This document shows positions 1,224 to 18,027 of a DNA stretch of 64,000 nt, in pieces. The DNA comes from Candidatus Hydrogenedentota bacterium (GTDB lineage Bacteria > Hydrogenedentota > Hydrogenedentia > Hydrogenedentales > SLHB01), in the NCBI GenBank assembly GCA_045863295.1, contig BTWA01000012.1:64001-128000 (forward strand). Reading direction: 5' to 3'. A model generated the notes under the pieces. That model had not been told where the DNA came from. It did no database searches and was given only the letters and a program-made list of their open reading frames with translations. Numbering within the stretch: position 1 is the first letter of the stretch; every line of letters begins with the position of its first letter. Made by a program: the position numbers and the translations under genes.

Positions 1224-2288
1224 ATGGATCCCGAGGCTGTTGAAAAGTTCTTCCATGTCGGACAACTCGCATTCTTCCATCTTGAACCCCGCGATCCTGC
1301 ACAGTTGGGAGTCAAATGCTACATTCGTGGCTGGCAACGGGGTTCCTATGTGCTAGTGGATATGCCTGATCCTGGCGAACACCACCTGCGAACAGGACAG
1401 GGGTGCAGCATTCGATTTGTGACGGACGAAGGATGCGCATGCCGGTTCGTGTCAAAAATCGGGGATTTGGGCTCGGGTATCTGTTTTTCGTTTGCTCGAG
1501 TTGCATGGCCGAGCATGGTTGCCAATATGCCCATACGCCGGCATCAGCGGTTGGCGTTCTCGTGTCCATGTACGGTTTTTTCCGACGAGGCAACCTCGGT
1601 TCCAGCAAATATCATTGACTTGAGCCGTGGCGGCTGTAAGATCGATTGCGCCATGCCGTTCGCCAAAGATACACAGCTTCATCTATCTTTTCGTTTGCCA
1701 GACGGTTCGATAATTGACGGGATTCCTGCTTCCGTATTAAGTATTTCGCGAGGAAAGCATACTCAAACGGTTCGTTGCCTTTTTGTAGATCCCGAAGAGA
1801 GCCATATTTACGACATTGAGTTCTACATCGCATCGACCTTGGCGCGTCAGCGTGGTTCAATGGATGCGATTCGTCGGGTGTTACTCGTCGAGCCGAACGA
1901 ACGCGAAGCCGAGCGCATCTGGGTGATGCTGCGGGATCGGGGATTCGAAGCATTTATTACGCATAACCTGGTAGACGCGTTTTTTCAATTGCGAAATCAG
2001 CCGCCGGCAGGCGTATTAATCAACGCGTCTATGCCTTCGGTAAGCGGAGTGCAGGCTTGCCGGACATTGCGCGGAATGAGGCAGTTTAAAAACCTTCCCA
2101 TCGTTATCTATGGTCCAGATGTGCCGAATCTGAAGAAAGAAGCCGTGGATGCAGGAGTCACAGCCTACGTAACGGATATGAGCACAGCGCGTGAGTTGAC
2201 AAGTCACTTCGCGGACGAACCAAATTCGAATCTGGAACCTACCCATAGCCATTCCATTCATGAAGCCGCCGGCGCCGCCGATTCGTAG
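1224..2288 (+). CDS. YcgR/PilZ-domain c-di-GMP effector with C-terminal atypical receiver domain (paralog of upstream gene)
   Basis: RRHQR and DLSRGG PilZ motifs; shares RGWQR and NLVD.F.QL with 96..1217; REC-like C-terminus. Confidence 0.8.
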   Translation: MDPEAVEKFFHVGQLAFFHLEPRDPAQLGVKCYIRGWQRGSYVLVDMPDPGEHHLRTGQGCSIRFVTDEGCACRFVSKIGDLGSGICFSFARVAWPSMVANMPIRRHQRLAFSCPCTVFSDEATSVPANIIDLSRGGCKIDCAMPFAKDTQLHLSFRLPDGSIIDGIPASVLSISRGKHTQTVRCLFVDPEESHIYDIEFYIASTLARQRGSMDAIRRVLLVEPNEREAERIWVMLRDRGFEAFITHNLVDAFFQLRNQPPAGVLINASMPSVSGVQACRTLRGMRQFKNLPIVIYGPDVPNLKKEAVDAGVTAYVTDMSTARELTSHFADEPNSNLEPTHSHSIHEAAGAADS

Positions 2289-12478: not shown

Positions 12479-12528
12479 ACAGTGATGGGTTACTTAGAAC
12501 AAATCAAGACACCTCAAAAACGTGCAGG

Positions 12529-13515
12529 TTAGACCTGTCCGGGTTCGCGAGGGTCCCCCATTTGAGGACGATTGCGTTTGAACCAAATGGCGGTCCCCAC
12601 AAGTCCTCCTACGATTAAGGAACCAACACCAATCCACTGAGATGTAGACAAACCGAATGCACGATTGGCTTCGACAAGGGGGGCTGCGTCAAGGACAACT
12701 CGCATCAATCCATATAAGACAAAAGTCAGTGCGAAAGTGGCACCCGGTGCTCGAATGCATCGGTAGAAGATCTCAACCGTCACCCAGAGTACCAGCCCCG
12801 CGGTCGTGTAGGCAATTGGCAAGGGAAACACCGGCATCGTTCGGTTCTTTTGAGCCATCAGCAGTGCCTCTTCACGTGTCATGCCGTGCGTGACGAGATG
12901 GCGTTTTAATGCGAGCGGCAGGCGGGAGTCGTCCATTGCAAGCAAAGCGACATGACAAATTGGAATGCGTTTCCCGTCTTCCAGCGAGAGCAGAAGCGGA
13001 TCTGGAGGATCGAGCATTCCCAACGCGTACTGACGGTTGTAAACGATGCTGCCAAACGGGTACGTGATGCCAACCGCCGGCCTACATTCGATCCCCGCGC
13101 AACATCCAGACGACAGACATGCAAATTTCGCCACGGCAATCGAAATAAAGATTGACGGCGCCAATGCATCAAGGTAAGTCAGAGATTTCGACCCAAAGAA
13201 CAGGACGTAACTAAACAAAATTACAGATGAAAACGCGAGAAAGATGGAAATGGAATACGGCGCTCGCGCAAAAGGAGAAAGCAGTGCCCATTCAAACCTG
13301 GGAGACGATCCGGAACTCAAGTCATGTACAATTCGCCCAGCCAGCCAACCGGCCACAATTGCAATAATAAACCCAGGAACCAATTTGCCAACGTCGATTT
13401 CCCGCCGCCGGGTACGGCCAATTAACGTGGCAACGCCTGCCAGTGCCGCCAAGAGGATGAAGAACGGATAAGCATTCACATCCATCCGGCCTATGGATAG
13501 GAGTACAGGTTGCAC
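12529..13515 (-). CDS. Divergent prolipoprotein diacylglyceryl transferase (Lgt)-family membrane protein
   Basis: Lgt-like N-terminus (MQPVLLSIG...Y), GRI, DALAPSI, KFACLSSGCCAG, YGLMR, GLSTSQWI; several canonical residues altered. Confidence 0.8.
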   Translation of the reverse strand: MQPVLLSIGRMDVNAYPFFILLAALAGVATLIGRTRRREIDVGKLVPGFIIAIVAGWLAGRIVHDLSSGSSPRFEWALLSPFARAPYSISIFLAFSSVILFSYVLFFGSKSLTYLDALAPSIFISIAVAKFACLSSGCCAGIECRPAVGITYPFGSIVYNRQYALGMLDPPDPLLLSLEDGKRIPICHVALLAMDDSRLPLALKRHLVTHGMTREEALLMAQKNRTMPVFPLPIAYTTAGLVLWVTVEIFYRCIRAPGATFALTFVLYGLMRVVLDAAPLVEANRAFGLSTSQWIGVGSLIVGGLVGTAIWFKRNRPQMGDPREPGQV

Positions 13516-13616
13516 GGGCTGGCTGGGCGAAATGCCGTCATTGCCGGGATTCAGGTTTTGCTATCAACACGAATACTGAAACCCAAACAAGACGGTGCAA
13601 TGCATGCCCAATCTTG

Positions 13617-13772
13617 TCAGTGCGTTAAGGCGTTGTAGCATTCGCCCCAGCCCGGCGTCGGATATTCCACAGGCACATCATCTGCATACGATACCAAGGC
13701 CGGTGCAAACAGGGTGGCAACTATGGCGACCGCGGCCGCCCACCAGATCACGCGCTTCGAAAACCGTTTCAT
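13617..13772 (-). CDS. Small secreted peptide, 51 aa: MKRFSKRVIWWAAAVAIVATLFAPALVSYA|DDVPVEYPTPGWGECYNALTH
   Basis: Translated by hand (below the ORF-track cut-off); AAGGAG RBS 8 nt upstream; Sec-type n/h/c regions ending S-Y-A; same strand, about 100 nt upstream of the Lgt-like gene. Confidence 0.75.
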   Translation of the reverse strand: MKRFSKRVIWWAAAVAIVATLFAPALVSYADDVPVEYPTPGWGECYNALTH

Positions 13773-14103
13773 TTCCTGTTCTCCTTGCTTTCTTGCCTTG
13801 CGACCTGCAAGACATATTTGTGGCGCACTCCGGCTCGGGATGTGGACTGCGTAAGTGCATTACCAACATTTCACGTGCCGGAACATACGCGCAATGGATG
13901 CAGACGAAAGCGAATGGGAGAGAATGCGTTCTCACTCGCAGCGCTTACAACCGGTACCGAATATACAGGCACAAGCCTTAAGCGTGTCCAACGTGTACAA
14001 ATACATGGGGTTTGAACGAGGCTGGAGCCCGAAAGGTGACGTCCACTCGAGTCCAATCAGCCGACGCCAAACGAGAAGCAACTGCAACAACCAGGATTTA
14101 ATC

Positions 14104-14132
14104 ACTTTATCAATAACCATTCATCTTGTCAA
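14104..14132 (-). promoter_or_regulatory. Putative sigma70 promoter facing the peptide/Lgt-like genes
   Basis: Minus strand TTGACA-N17-TAAAGT with TG extended -10. Confidence 0.55.
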
Positions 14133-14250: not shown

Positions 14251-14733
14251 TCAAGTCAGAATCGAAGGTAGTGAGTCCGGGGCTCCCTCTACCAAATTGC
14301 GTATGCCGTCAATAGAGGAAAGGCCTCTCTTTTCGCCAATGCGGCTCATGATCCATGCCAGACATTTCAACCAAAATGGAATGGGAGCATTCGATATGCA
14401 CAATTCATGACGCAATCTTACTTGCTTTCCATTTTCAAGAGCATCCAGATGAAATGTCTCATCCACGTGGCGGCCTTTGTGCGTTGATTCAAGTATATAC
14501 CGGAAAGTAATTCTGATTCGCGGATCCAACGCCACCACTTCGCAGGAGGCCCTTGAGGCAGGTCCGGACATCTTGAACGTGGCACTGAACCGGAGTCCGT
14601 TGTATGCCTTCGTCCCCCGAGCGTCGCAGGCAACACACTTGTGATTCCAGAGCGGCATTAACTCTACGTCTTCCAGAACGGACCAGACGCGATCAGGACT
14701 GCCTGAAATGAAGCCCTCGTCATAAAGCACCAT
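14251..14733 (-). CDS. SRPBCC/polyketide-cyclase-like protein
   Basis: ISGSPDRVWSVLEDVELMPLWN pattern; start moved to ATG 14733. Confidence 0.75.
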   Translation of the reverse strand: MVLYDEGFISGSPDRVWSVLEDVELMPLWNHKCVACDARGTKAYNGLRFSATFKMSGPASRASCEVVALDPRIRITFRYILESTHKGRHVDETFHLDALENGKQVRLRHELCISNAPIPFWLKCLAWIMSRIGEKRGLSSIDGIRNLVEGAPDSLPSILT

Positions 14734-14756
14734 TTCGAGAATTGTCACCGTTGTAG

Positions 14757-15938
14757 TCAGTTCAATACCGATGGATCCCAAATGGTGGCGCCAATATACC
14801 GTTCGGGACCGGTCGTTGCATCGTTGAAGTAATACACGACAACCACTTTTCCATCAGGGCGTTGCACGCTTCGTGGATAGCCGATGTCTCGACTTGCGCC
14901 GTCCTTGCGCAGGACGATTTCTTTACCCCAGGTTCTACCGCCGTCGTCGCTCAACTTGGCGCACATGGAGAAAGGTTCCGCCCTGTATCCATAGGTCAGA
15001 CAGAGGCGGCCATCTTTCAGTTTGATTAAGCTGGGAGGGTTTCCTTCGCCCAGTGTTTCCATTGGGTCGTTAGAGTACGTCCATGTCTTGCCGTTATCGG
15101 CGGAGTGATAGGTCGAATTAAAGCGGCGATCAGGCGTGCGCACGCGCACGACACTCACCAATTCAGTTTCGGACAACCGAACGCTTGAGGGCATAATGGA
15201 GAATTCGTCAATCTCAGGCCCGATGAACGAGAGAAATTCCCACGATTTCCCGCCATCGGTTGTGCGCATGCAGAAAGGCCGGCCCTCCCGGCCATTGCTT
15301 TTGGCCGCGGTCGAAAAGACGGTGCAAATGCCGGGTCCATCCACAATATAGTCGGTACGAGCCGCGGTGCCCTGCAAATCAAAGTTGGGGAGACGAAATG
15401 GGCCTTGCCAAACATGGCCTCGATCATAGGAGTAGTAAAACCGAGACACCCCCGCATGAACGCTGTTCATGCGCGTGGTAAAGGCAAAATCCGGATGAGT
15501 AAAGTCAATTCCTCCCGGGCATTCTTCCAGCGGTGGAATGGCGACTCCTGGAATCTCCGTGCCATGCAATGAATCGCCTTCAGGCATCAGCATGCCCTTG
15601 GAGTTCGGATCTTCAATCGCCCAACTCTCCCCGCCATCTAGGCTTCGGGCGAGCATGTGCCGTTCTGGTTTGTCGCGGTCGATGTGATGACGATCTCCCA
15701 GGTTCAGATAGTGACCTTTGCTAAATCCCACCAGGATTTCGTTGCCCCAAATCCATATGCCATGGTTGGCGGGCCAACCACCAAACATGCCCGGCTCGTA
15801 ATAGACTTTTACATGAGATGCCTGCACGGGTTCACCTTGCGCCTGCTCCTGTCCGTAGGAGGCGCATGCCAAGAATACGATCCAAATGACTAATGACAAG
15901 ACATCGTAGCGGACAAACGAACGCATTGAGGTCGGCAT
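14757..15938 (-). CDS. Secreted BNR/Asp-box (sialidase-like) beta-propeller
   Basis: Asp-boxes SLDGGESW, SYDRGHVW, TTDGGKSW, SADNGKTW, SDDGGRTW; signal peptide; CAGGAG RBS before ATG 15938. Confidence 0.85.
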   Translation of the reverse strand: MPTSMRSFVRYDVLSLVIWIVFLACASYGQEQAQGEPVQASHVKVYYEPGMFGGWPANHGIWIWGNEILVGFSKGHYLNLGDRHHIDRDKPERHMLARSLDGGESWAIEDPNSKGMLMPEGDSLHGTEIPGVAIPPLEECPGGIDFTHPDFAFTTRMNSVHAGVSRFYYSYDRGHVWQGPFRLPNFDLQGTAARTDYIVDGPGICTVFSTAAKSNGREGRPFCMRTTDGGKSWEFLSFIGPEIDEFSIMPSSVRLSETELVSVVRVRTPDRRFNSTYHSADNGKTWTYSNDPMETLGEGNPPSLIKLKDGRLCLTYGYRAEPFSMCAKLSDDGGRTWGKEIVLRKDGASRDIGYPRSVQRPDGKVVVVYYFNDATTGPERYIGATIWDPSVLN

Positions 15939-16307
15939 GTGCGGCTCCTGGTTGATGGAACAGCATCGTACTGGGGCGGGAGCACCTCCTTCAAGGTCAC
16001 CGTAACCGATTGTGTACGAGTCCAATTGTGACCTCAGGTCGCGCGTGCGCGGGCCATGTCATTCGATGGTCTGTCGGTTTGGAGGTATACGGCTAGAGTG
16101 GGCAGGGTTTCATTCAAGCCCAGAGTACGGTGACGTAATCCAGGAGTATCGCCTGACGTTACGGACTATTTCGCCGAATGGTGAGGGCTACAACCGCGTA
16201 CCGATAACTAGCAAATAGGTCACCATGGAATGCGATGCACAATAATCGCCTCCATCCACTCGAATCACACGCGGGTGTGTCTCGTTTGTACCGGCAAGAT
16301 AATTCTT

Positions 16308-16884: not shown

Positions 16885-18027
16885 CTATGCGGTTACGCTC
16901 AACTTCTTTGAATTTGCGGCCTTCTGATCCATGACGGACTGCCATTTTCTGGCAACGGCGTGCGACATTATGCAATCAAGGTAGGCAGGATCCGTGCATG
17001 GAAATGGCTCGGAATCGTCAAGCACAAAGTCAGTATTGGAGCGGTCAAAGACCGCTTCCGCAAACATATACGGTCGCAGGGGCAGCATTGATTTCAAGGT
17101 GCGACGTTCTACCGGAGTCGCATCGCCATTCAAACGGGGGACATCCGCAAGCCGCCCTGGCGATCCCCGACGGGCACAGTATCCATTCGCCCACCCCATC
17201 ATGTGCCGGTGCGTCAACGGATTGGGATTCGTGAGATGAAACGTCCTGCCTGAAGGCCCGTCGCGGTCAATGATGGTCCACATCGCCCTCGCTACCCAGT
17301 CCACGGGCACCAAGTTCTGAGTTGAATGAGGATTCGCTTCAACGCGAATGGGCCTGTCACACGGAATTCGGCGTTCGGCCAACAGGGCTACCAAACGCAT
17401 AAAACCGTAAAAGTTCAGGAACTGGCAGATGGAACCATCCCCGGTTGCGCCTGTAATGATAGAAGGCCGGAATATCGATCCCTGCACTCGGCCACTCGCG
17501 ATCGCGTCTCGTACCATGCGCTCCGCCGTGAGTTTGCTCTTTTCATAGGTGTTCTTGAAGATCTGCCCATGATCGAGATCGCTCTCGCGCACAATACCTA
17601 CTCGAGTGCCTGCAACATACGCCGTGCTGACGTGGTAGAGCGGGATTCCCGTTCCTTCCAGAAAGTCAATGACGTTAGCCACACCCCAAACATTGGTATC
17701 CCAAATCACCTCATCCATCGAGCTATCGAAACTCGTACACGCGGCACAATGAATCAAGGCAGTCAACGTTCGCCGAAGTTCATCTCGTTGCCGGGAGGAG
17801 ATGCCAAGGTTGGGCAGGCATGCATCGCCATGCACAATGCGGATTCGTGACGTAAGGTGTCCCCGACCCGTAATAGACATGACGGCCGTCAAGCGCCTTC
17901 TAGCCGTGCCAGGGTCCGCGTCACGCATTAGGACGACCGGTTTGAGTCCGCGGTCCAGGCTTTCAGCCAGGACCCAACTTCCCATAATGCCCGTTGCGCC
18001 CGTCAGCAGGATGGAGCGGTGCCGCAT
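16885..18027 (-). CDS. Extended SDR / NAD_binding_4 (fatty acyl-CoA or thioester reductase-like)
   Basis: LLTGATGIMG, HVSTAYV, YEKSK, RPSII, NLVPVDWV. Confidence 0.85.
   Translation of the reverse strand: MRHRSILLTGATGIMGSWVLAESLDRGLKPVVLMRDADPGTARRRLTAVMSITGRGHLTSRIRIVHGDACLPNLGISSRQRDELRRTLTALIHCAACTSFDSSMDEVIWDTNVWGVANVIDFLEGTGIPLYHVSTAYVAGTRVGIVRESDLDHGQIFKNTYEKSKLTAERMVRDAIASGRVQGSIFRPSIITGATGDGSICQFLNFYGFMRLVALLAERRIPCDRPIRVEANPHSTQNLVPVDWVARAMWTIIDRDGPSGRTFHLTNPNPLTHRHMMGWANGYCARRGSPGRLADVPRLNGDATPVERRTLKSMLPLRPYMFAEAVFDRSNTDFVLDDSEPFPCTDPAYLDCIMSHAVARKWQSVMDQKAANSKKLSVTA

Follow-up and report, generated by a model that had tools for sequence, protein, structure and literature searches.

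A divergent Lgt paralog encoded with lipobox-free leader peptides in Hydrogenedentota: a candidate leader-guided system for modifying ribosomal peptides

The prolipoprotein diacylglyceryl transferase Lgt is regarded as a housekeeping enzyme that has a single purpose and recognises its substrates by one rule, the lipobox. AgrB, another membrane enzyme that works on peptides, is a cysteine peptidase with a fold unrelated to that of Lgt, and the rings of the corresponding autoinducing peptides (AIPs) are fixed in size. For Escherichia coli Lgt, published work (PMC4728403) reports that R143 and R239 frame the bond attacked by the acceptor Cys, that R239, Y235, Y26, D129 and G154 line the phosphatidylglycerol site, and that the R143A/E/K variants and variants of H103 and R246 fail to complement; a further study assigns protein-substrate specificity to arm-2/HGGL and the head domain (PMC13251419). 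Diacylglycerol-bearing peptides that are synthesized on the ribosome and modified after translation (DAG-RiPPs) are made from precursors with a canonical lipobox by the ordinary Lgt, LspA and Lnt of the cell, giving an N-terminal lipid-Cys, and the enzyme found in their gene cluster is an MNIO rather than an Lgt (PMC13056109, PNAS 2026). Here, we describe a two-gene cassette on the minus strand of a 64,000-nucleotide (nt) stretch of DNA from a Candidatus Hydrogenedentota bacterium (positions 64,001 to 128,000 of contig BTWA01000012.1, assembly GCA_045863295.1; hereafter the window), in which a small open reading frame (ORF; 13617..13772) for a predicted Sec-type leader peptide is followed, after 101 nt, by an Lgt-family gene (12529..13515). 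An earlier note on this DNA had taken the two for a dedicated precursor/enzyme pair or, alternatively, a peptide ligand with its receptor. A full-text literature search, supplements aside, found no published description of an Lgt paralog encoded with private lipobox-free peptides.

The pairing of the peptide and enzyme genes is real and conserved. In the phylum set of 135 genomes we found six full-length genes of the enzyme's subfamily (delimited below) in five genomes, the window genome having a second one on its contig 6. All six are directly preceded on the same strand by leader-type peptide genes, one to five per locus, with about 44-125 nt between peptide and enzyme genes; thus, the dedicated pair proposed earlier recurs wherever its enzyme was located. 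The locus in genome G011, for instance, has five tandem peptide genes with different tails and one enzyme gene. In contrast, such a peptide was found upstream of none of the 84 located genes for more distant Lgt-family proteins (at least 85 loci scanned, among the matches listed); these controls were relatives recovered by a contig scan keyed on a motif common to ordinary Cys-type Lgts. Peptide-profile matches at E<=1e-13 are confined to the five enzyme-bearing genomes of the 135, which lie in three genera and therefore do not constitute five independent cases. The same profile recovered peptide copies unlinked to an enzyme gene, four in genome G110 and one in G111.

Beyond these five genomes the profile gave two weak matches. 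The one in genome G013 is the 16th peptide of our collection (1498..1653(+) of locus L129, on contig 42), and its tail ends in W-L-P-E-C-L-E, resembling the G-W-G-E-C of the window peptide. A subfamily enzyme was not found in the G013 assembly, which is fragmented into 650 contigs; since the peptide gene lies 98 nt from the contig end, a downstream partner would be out of sight, and the case counts neither way for the pairing. The other match, in G044, falls inside a 944-amino acid (aa) frame and was taken as an ordinary signal peptide. A scan of metagenomes with a degenerate DNA pattern matched five collected loci, and a search with the C-terminal halves yielded one locus, L118, a duplicate of the G111 locus down to its identical peptide, so that it adds no independent case. 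Immediately upstream of the peptide gene, L118 (1027..2703(+)) and the G111 locus encode a 558-aa membrane protein with many helices and no assigned family; present in this lineage only, it might act as an exporter and is not conserved at the other loci. One of the four unlinked copies in G110, a single peptide gene on contig 59 (L119, 3120..3266(+)), lies in the neighbourhood seen around the G011 array (L008), the two having in common an upstream zinc-ribbon gene and a nearby membrane protein. The next gene at L119 codes for a 344-aa secreted protein and no Lgt-like gene follows the peptide; the enzyme gene of G110 is on a different contig with a peptide of its own.

The window peptide gene (13617..13772, minus strand) has an ATG start and encodes 51 aa plus a stop, with an AAGGAG ribosome-binding site (13781..13786) 8 nt before the ATG. 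Its product, MKRFSKRVIWWAAAVAIVATLFAPALVSYADDVPVEYPTPGWGECYNALTH, matches the profile of the peptide family at E 7.4e-18. By alignment and column counts, residues 1-30 (13683..13772) form the leader, with a K/R-rich N-terminus, a W-W pair, a hydrophobic core, L-F-A-P and an A-x-A-type site, S-Y-A, at residues 28-30. The remaining residues, 31-51 (13620..13682), make up a variable acidic tail of 21 residues holding the only Cys of the peptide, Cys45 (codon 13638..13640), which is preceded by W-G-E, is not in a lipobox and is the proposed modification site. These features bear out the earlier description of a small ORF with a good ribosome-binding site, a Sec-type signal peptide ending in S-Y-A and a single Cys outside a lipobox, with a Lgt-family gene about 100 nt downstream on the same strand; the profile match and the codon pattern given below indicate that the ORF is more than a chance occurrence.

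We collected 16 such peptides, of which 15 were aligned, the 16th being that from G013. They share a leader type that combines a Sec-type signal with W-x-W/Y, L-F-[A/G]-P and A-x-A. In the 22-residue leader core of the 15 aligned copies, the L is invariant (15/15), the F and the P are each present in 14/15, the final leader residue is A in 14/15 and the residue two earlier is A or S in 15/15; W or Y dominates at two positions close to the start of the helix. Every one of the 15 peptide genes checked has an ATG start and a purine-rich stretch 5-10 nt upstream. Among the 15 leader copies, pairwise differences per site come to 0.435 at the first codon position, 0.325 at the second and 0.646 at the third, and the excess at the third position points to a translated sequence under purifying selection; it is solely from this pattern in the leader that we infer translation of the peptide genes.

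The tails, of 17-34 aa, are hypervariable and between subtypes can be aligned only at the Cys column, which is invariant in 15/15 aligned peptides. There is exactly one Cys in every one of the 16 tails; it follows the predicted cut by 8-23 residues and precedes the C-terminus by 2-11. As Cys accounts for 1.35% of the residues in long ORFs of the window genome, exactly one Cys would be expected in about 1/5 of tails of such length, and we estimate that a single Cys per tail is far beyond chance even if the tails are counted as 8-9 independent types. The residue ahead of the Cys gives R-C in many of the 16 peptides, E-C in three, and Q-C, T-C, N-C, F-C or D-C in others. The lipobox pattern [LVI][ASTVI][GAS]C occurs in none of them, and a small residue at -1 with a fitting context in at most one. 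This degree of conservation, a specific leader with an invariant single Cys, is what the pair proposed in the earlier note had called for. At E<=0.01 the window peptide matched no family in Pfam or NCBIfam, and no family there covers the peptides; a search of the ESM Atlas with the peptide gave no usable match. An identity as TatA/E was considered and rejected: one of ten peptides gave a weak match (E 9e-4 in NCBIfam, 1.5e-3 in Pfam), under the cut-off, and the K/R-rich N-terminus implies a membrane orientation opposite to that of TatA/E, which argues against the assignment.

The gene downstream (12529..13515, minus strand, GTG start) encodes a 328-aa membrane protein that was assigned to the Lgt family by its Pfam match, profile-profile alignment and fold. 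It scores 46.4 bits against Pfam LGT (PF01790; cut-off 24.9) over residues 3-304 and stays far under every NCBIfam lgt cut-off, the best being NF000778 (54.2 vs 334 bits), with TIGR00544 at 16.7 vs 118.9. A word-based protein search with the enzyme found only itself. When 1.84 billion representative proteins were scanned in full with HMMER, 559 matched at E<=0.001 and only 14 of them at E<=1e-30, with a clear gap below these. The subfamily set comprises P0002-P0015 and the window protein (15 sequences); its members are 29-35% identical to the query, align over the full length and have 20 invariant positions. Of its clusters, 3/10 are named in databases, as prolipoprotein diacylglyceryl transferase. 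The public record of the window enzyme (P0001) is a 318-aa protein starting at residue 11, thus skipping 13486..13515; residues 1-10 align with the N-termini of the homologs, which supports the GTG at 13515; the gene as deposited probably lacks its first 10 codons.

The subfamily alignment served to build an AlphaFold2 model, whose mean predicted local distance difference test score (pLDDT) is 82.6 and whose predicted template modelling score (pTM) is 0.80. With this model Foldseek retrieved E. coli Lgt (5azb) as the sole match at E<=0.001, and VIA-align superimposed the same structure with Z 19.0 and a root-mean-square deviation of 3.2 Å over 248 aligned residues, the next entry reaching Z 6.8. 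The enzyme as modelled has the seven-helix Lgt fold.

Active-site residues were mapped by profile-profile alignment (hhalign) against E. coli Lgt and four canonical-type paralogs of the window genome; the subfamily aligns with canonical Lgts at a probability of 99.9 and E 2.3e-32. In this mapping E. coli Y26, D129 and G154 correspond to window Y17, D116 and G141, which are invariant in the subfamily, as are R272 (for R239) and D276 (for E243, a conservative change); Y268, equivalent to Y235, is kept in at least 90% of the members. The position of R143 is taken by K130, with Lys in 15/15 subfamily sequences and Arg in all five canonical-type sequences aligned, and those of N146 and E151 by C133 and C138. 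E. coli R246 and HGGL are without counterpart in the window protein; across the subfamily Arg is absent at the R246 position, neither His nor GG is present at the positions aligned with HGGL (H103), and the HPSQLYE motif is also lost. The variant signature motif, K-F-A-C-L-S-S-G-C-C-A-G-I-E-C (residues 130-144, 13084..13128), replaces the E. coli G142-RLGNFINGELW-G154; K130, C133, G137, C138, C139 and G141 are invariant in the 15 sequences, and C144 is conserved in at least 90%. Between the fourth and fifth helices the profile alignment shows an insertion, by which the head region (residues about 157-231, 12823..13047) exceeds that of canonical Lgts by some 50 residues; it is modelled as helices and short strands at a pLDDT of about 74-90, and its periplasmic location is predicted from E. 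coli Lgt (PMC4728403).

Judging by these alignments, the Lys at R143, the loss of the arm-2 motif (HGGL) and of R246, and the enlarged head are specific traits of the subfamily. With the donor-site residues conserved and arm-2/HGGL and the head altered, the donor-binding core would seem to be largely kept and the substrate-choosing parts changed.

The cassette gene is also not the only lgt of its genome; had it been the only one, this would have spoken against a dedicated role. Six PF01790 matches (L001-L006) lie on contigs 5, 6, 12 and 27 of the assembly, which comprises 6.3 Mb in 88 contigs, and the window enzyme is the weakest of them. The best (205.6 bits, contig 6) lies directly 3' of one of two lspA genes and is therefore taken as the housekeeping lgt, whereas the window enzyme is not beside lspA. 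Cys stands at the N146 and E151 positions in all six paralogs, including this housekeeping copy (signature G-R-I-G-C-F-L-N-G-C-C-F-G), and several distant Lgts with a Cys-type motif sit directly after lspA. Thus, the altered active site described in the earlier note holds for the Lys at R143, the lost HGGL and R246 and the insertion, but the Cys residues at N146/E151 are normal for many lineages; their presence even in the lspA-linked copy means that not every member of the Lgt family has the residues found to be essential in E. coli. The His of HGGL, too, is missing from the housekeeping copy and so is not universal. No more than 1.5 kb separates two further paralogs (L002 and L004, of 283 and 249 aa), which are encoded by opposite strands of contig 27, at 15079-15831(+) and 17283-17915(-); the shorter has a degenerate signature, A-R-L-A-C-L-F-Q-G-C-C-Q-G.

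The reading that we favour, with a probability of about one half, is that a dedicated Lgt paralog, guided by the leader and independent of a lipobox, modifies the tail Cys, probably by S-diacylglyceryl transfer. Sec would export the peptide, the N-terminus being in the cytoplasm and the leader helix in the membrane; as a Sec-type signal, the leader would present the membrane-borne substrate to the periplasm, the side of the Lgt active site. Within the membrane the paralog would read the conserved leader (W-x-W/Y ... L-F-[A/G]-P), which would replace the lipobox as the recognition element: L-F-[A/G]-P appears to sit where the lipobox would be, with the Pro in the place of the Cys. The single tail Cys would then be modified at the periplasmic face, most likely by diacylglyceryl transfer from phosphatidylglycerol to its thiol, and signal peptidase I would probably cut at A-x-A, freeing a peptide of 17-34 residues that has a lipid on an internal Cys close to the C-terminus. 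In this manner, as in RiPP pathways, a single enzyme could act on several peptides that differ in their tails, and the cassette family does have the RiPP-type traits of a conserved leader, a variable core, an enzyme alongside and one enzyme for several cores. The occurrence of one enzyme gene with five tandem peptides, together with the orphan peptide genes elsewhere, favours a leader-guided enzyme over the ligand/receptor pair that the earlier note had offered as an alternative. With tails so variable, copies in tandem and a patchy distribution, the peptides may function in signalling or cell-cell competition. That the enzyme acts on the peptide at all, and likewise the group it transfers, the cleavage site and the biological role, are points that we infer. 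More tentatively, with odds somewhat short of even, the system might represent a new class of ribosomal lipopeptide, in which an Lgt paralog reads L-F-[A/G]-P and lipidates an internal Cys without lipobox, LspA or Lnt.

Several points weigh against this reading. The DNA context comes from only 5-6 genomes of one phylum, and roughly 9 further subfamily clusters are known from metagenomes. A search of sequencing runs gave no RNA support for expression of the cassette: a metatranscriptome yielded one low-depth contig that spans 13356..13525 only and is not usable as expression evidence. Lys occupies the R143 position even though R143K is inactive in E. coli Lgt, and HGGL (H103) and R246, which tolerate no change there according to the same work (PMC4728403), are missing; hence, the protein may use another donor, catalyse another reaction or be non-catalytic. 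The tail Cys, at 8-23 residues past the predicted cut, is far from the usual Cys of Lgt substrates. Co-folding of the enzyme and peptide (runs of 0.58, 0.02 and 0.05) gave no verdict and was counted neither way.

If the departures from the canonical active site are taken at face value, the logic of the cassette could be unchanged and its chemistry different, involving another donor, another group on the Cys, for example a different lipid or a fragment of a head group, or another reaction of the Cys such as cyclisation. The invariant Lys in place of an Arg whose change to Lys inactivates the canonical enzyme in E. coli is in line with this, as are the loss of R246, HGGL and HPSQLYE and the additional conserved Cys, C144 (at least 90%), in the signature region. 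However, the phosphatidylglycerol-site residues R239, Y235, Y26, D129 and G154 are retained, the fold is without sign of peptidase or ligase activity, and the Cys stands anywhere from 2 to 11 residues before the C-terminus, which makes a fixed ring as in an AIP unlikely; we therefore consider a different chemistry unlikely, if still worth keeping in mind. Going further, the peptide might be an unmodified secreted toxin or signal, with the Lgt-like protein acting as a non-catalytic immunity protein, receptor or exporter. Bacteriocin/immunity pairs usually consist of a small secreted peptide and a multi-pass membrane protein, a layout that the cassette resembles, and the alteration of residues essential in the E. 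coli enzyme (R143K; H103 and R246 lost) would fit a protein that had given up catalysis. Yet twenty positions, active-site equivalents among them, are invariant in 15 sequences at 29-35% identity; an immunity or receptor protein should track the variable tail, whereas here one membrane protein faces five unrelated tails and orphan peptides go without a partner; and the conserved part is the leader, which secretion would remove. An unmodified peptide thus strikes us as quite improbable.

The conservation of the leader has another potential explanation, namely that the small protein is an uncleaved single-pass partner or regulator of an Lgt paralog lipidating other proteins. Small membrane proteins are often encoded beside their partners, and the conserved part, being a transmembrane helix, could serve helix-helix binding. 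The five-gene arrays and orphan copies are, however, unlike a stoichiometric subunit, and a lone invariant Cys in a freely varying tail and an A-x-A site suit a substrate better, such that we give a regulatory subunit the least credence of all.

Turning to the layout of the locus, a promoter-like site (TTGACA / 17 nt / TAAAGT; 14104..14132, minus strand), identified by consensus match only at 10/12 positions, lies about 330 nt 5' of the peptide start within a 478-nt gap without a known gene. The cassette thus has the candidate promoter ascribed to it earlier (14132..14104), in a region with three promoter-like sites vs an average of 1.9 in shuffles and in a phylum whose own promoters are uncharacterised. 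The 101-nt spacer between the peptide and enzyme genes (13516..13616) contains a hairpin followed by a U-rich run directly 3' of the peptide stop (13575..13612). The hairpin might determine how much precursor is made relative to enzyme, as happens in certain RiPP operons; such an attenuator role is only a guess because the RNA fold of the spacer is no better than that of shuffles (z -1.18), and an Rfam search of it gave no match. A terminator-like hairpin (12525..12537, minus strand; consensus match only) overlaps the stop codon of the enzyme gene. The cassette is flanked upstream by genes for an SRPBCC-like protein (14251..14781(-)) and a BNR-repeat, sialidase-like protein (14757..16025(-)), which share 25 nt according to the list of ORFs and may form an operon unrelated to it, and downstream by those for a short-chain dehydrogenase and a HAD hydrolase; none of these four recurs at the related loci. 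Window DNA was found in sludge and bioreactor metagenomes, letter-identical where covered and with no variants seen.

If the favoured reading is true, this would be the first Lgt-family enzyme with genetically linked substrates of its own, and the lipoprotein-anchoring reaction would have been recruited for secondary-metabolite-like peptides. Private substrates free of a lipobox would widen the scope of the Lgt fold and open a new route to the lipidation of ribosomal peptides, with leader and enzyme making up a compact two-gene tool to attach lipids to chosen peptides. Lipoprotein-type chemistry would here be applied to dedicated ribosomal peptides, and the chance that these form a new lipopeptide class is substantial; the products would probably be small lipid-tagged peptides made by a route not described before.

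Among the known systems, AgrD/AgrB offers a likeness in organization: in both cases a short precursor gene stands beside the gene of a polytopic membrane enzyme, and a variable core has a single Cys near the C-terminus. It differs in that the Cys-to-C-terminus distance is here variable (2-11 residues) and the leader is a Sec-type signal. The likeness to E. coli Lgt (PDB 5azb/5azc) extends over the fold, the Pfam LGT match and the equivalents of Y26, D129, G154, Y235 and R239, and by homology would include a periplasm-facing active site and Sec-exported, membrane-tethered Cys substrates. Unlike that enzyme, the window protein has Lys for R143, is without HGGL, R246 and HPSQLYE and has a head about 50 residues larger; unlike housekeeping Lgts in general, it is encoded beside private lipobox-free peptides and scores below the NCBIfam equivalog cut-offs. 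The closest published system (PMC13056109) is that of the DAG-RiPPs, which are likewise ribosomal peptides with a signal peptide, are lipid-peptide hybrids arising from lipoprotein-type chemistry and carry on a Cys the diacylglycerol that is here proposed. Whereas those depend on a lipobox and on the common lipoprotein machinery of the cell, in the system described here the Lgt paralog is the sole enzyme of the cluster, and the Cys is internal, outside any lipobox, and follows a signal peptidase I-like site.

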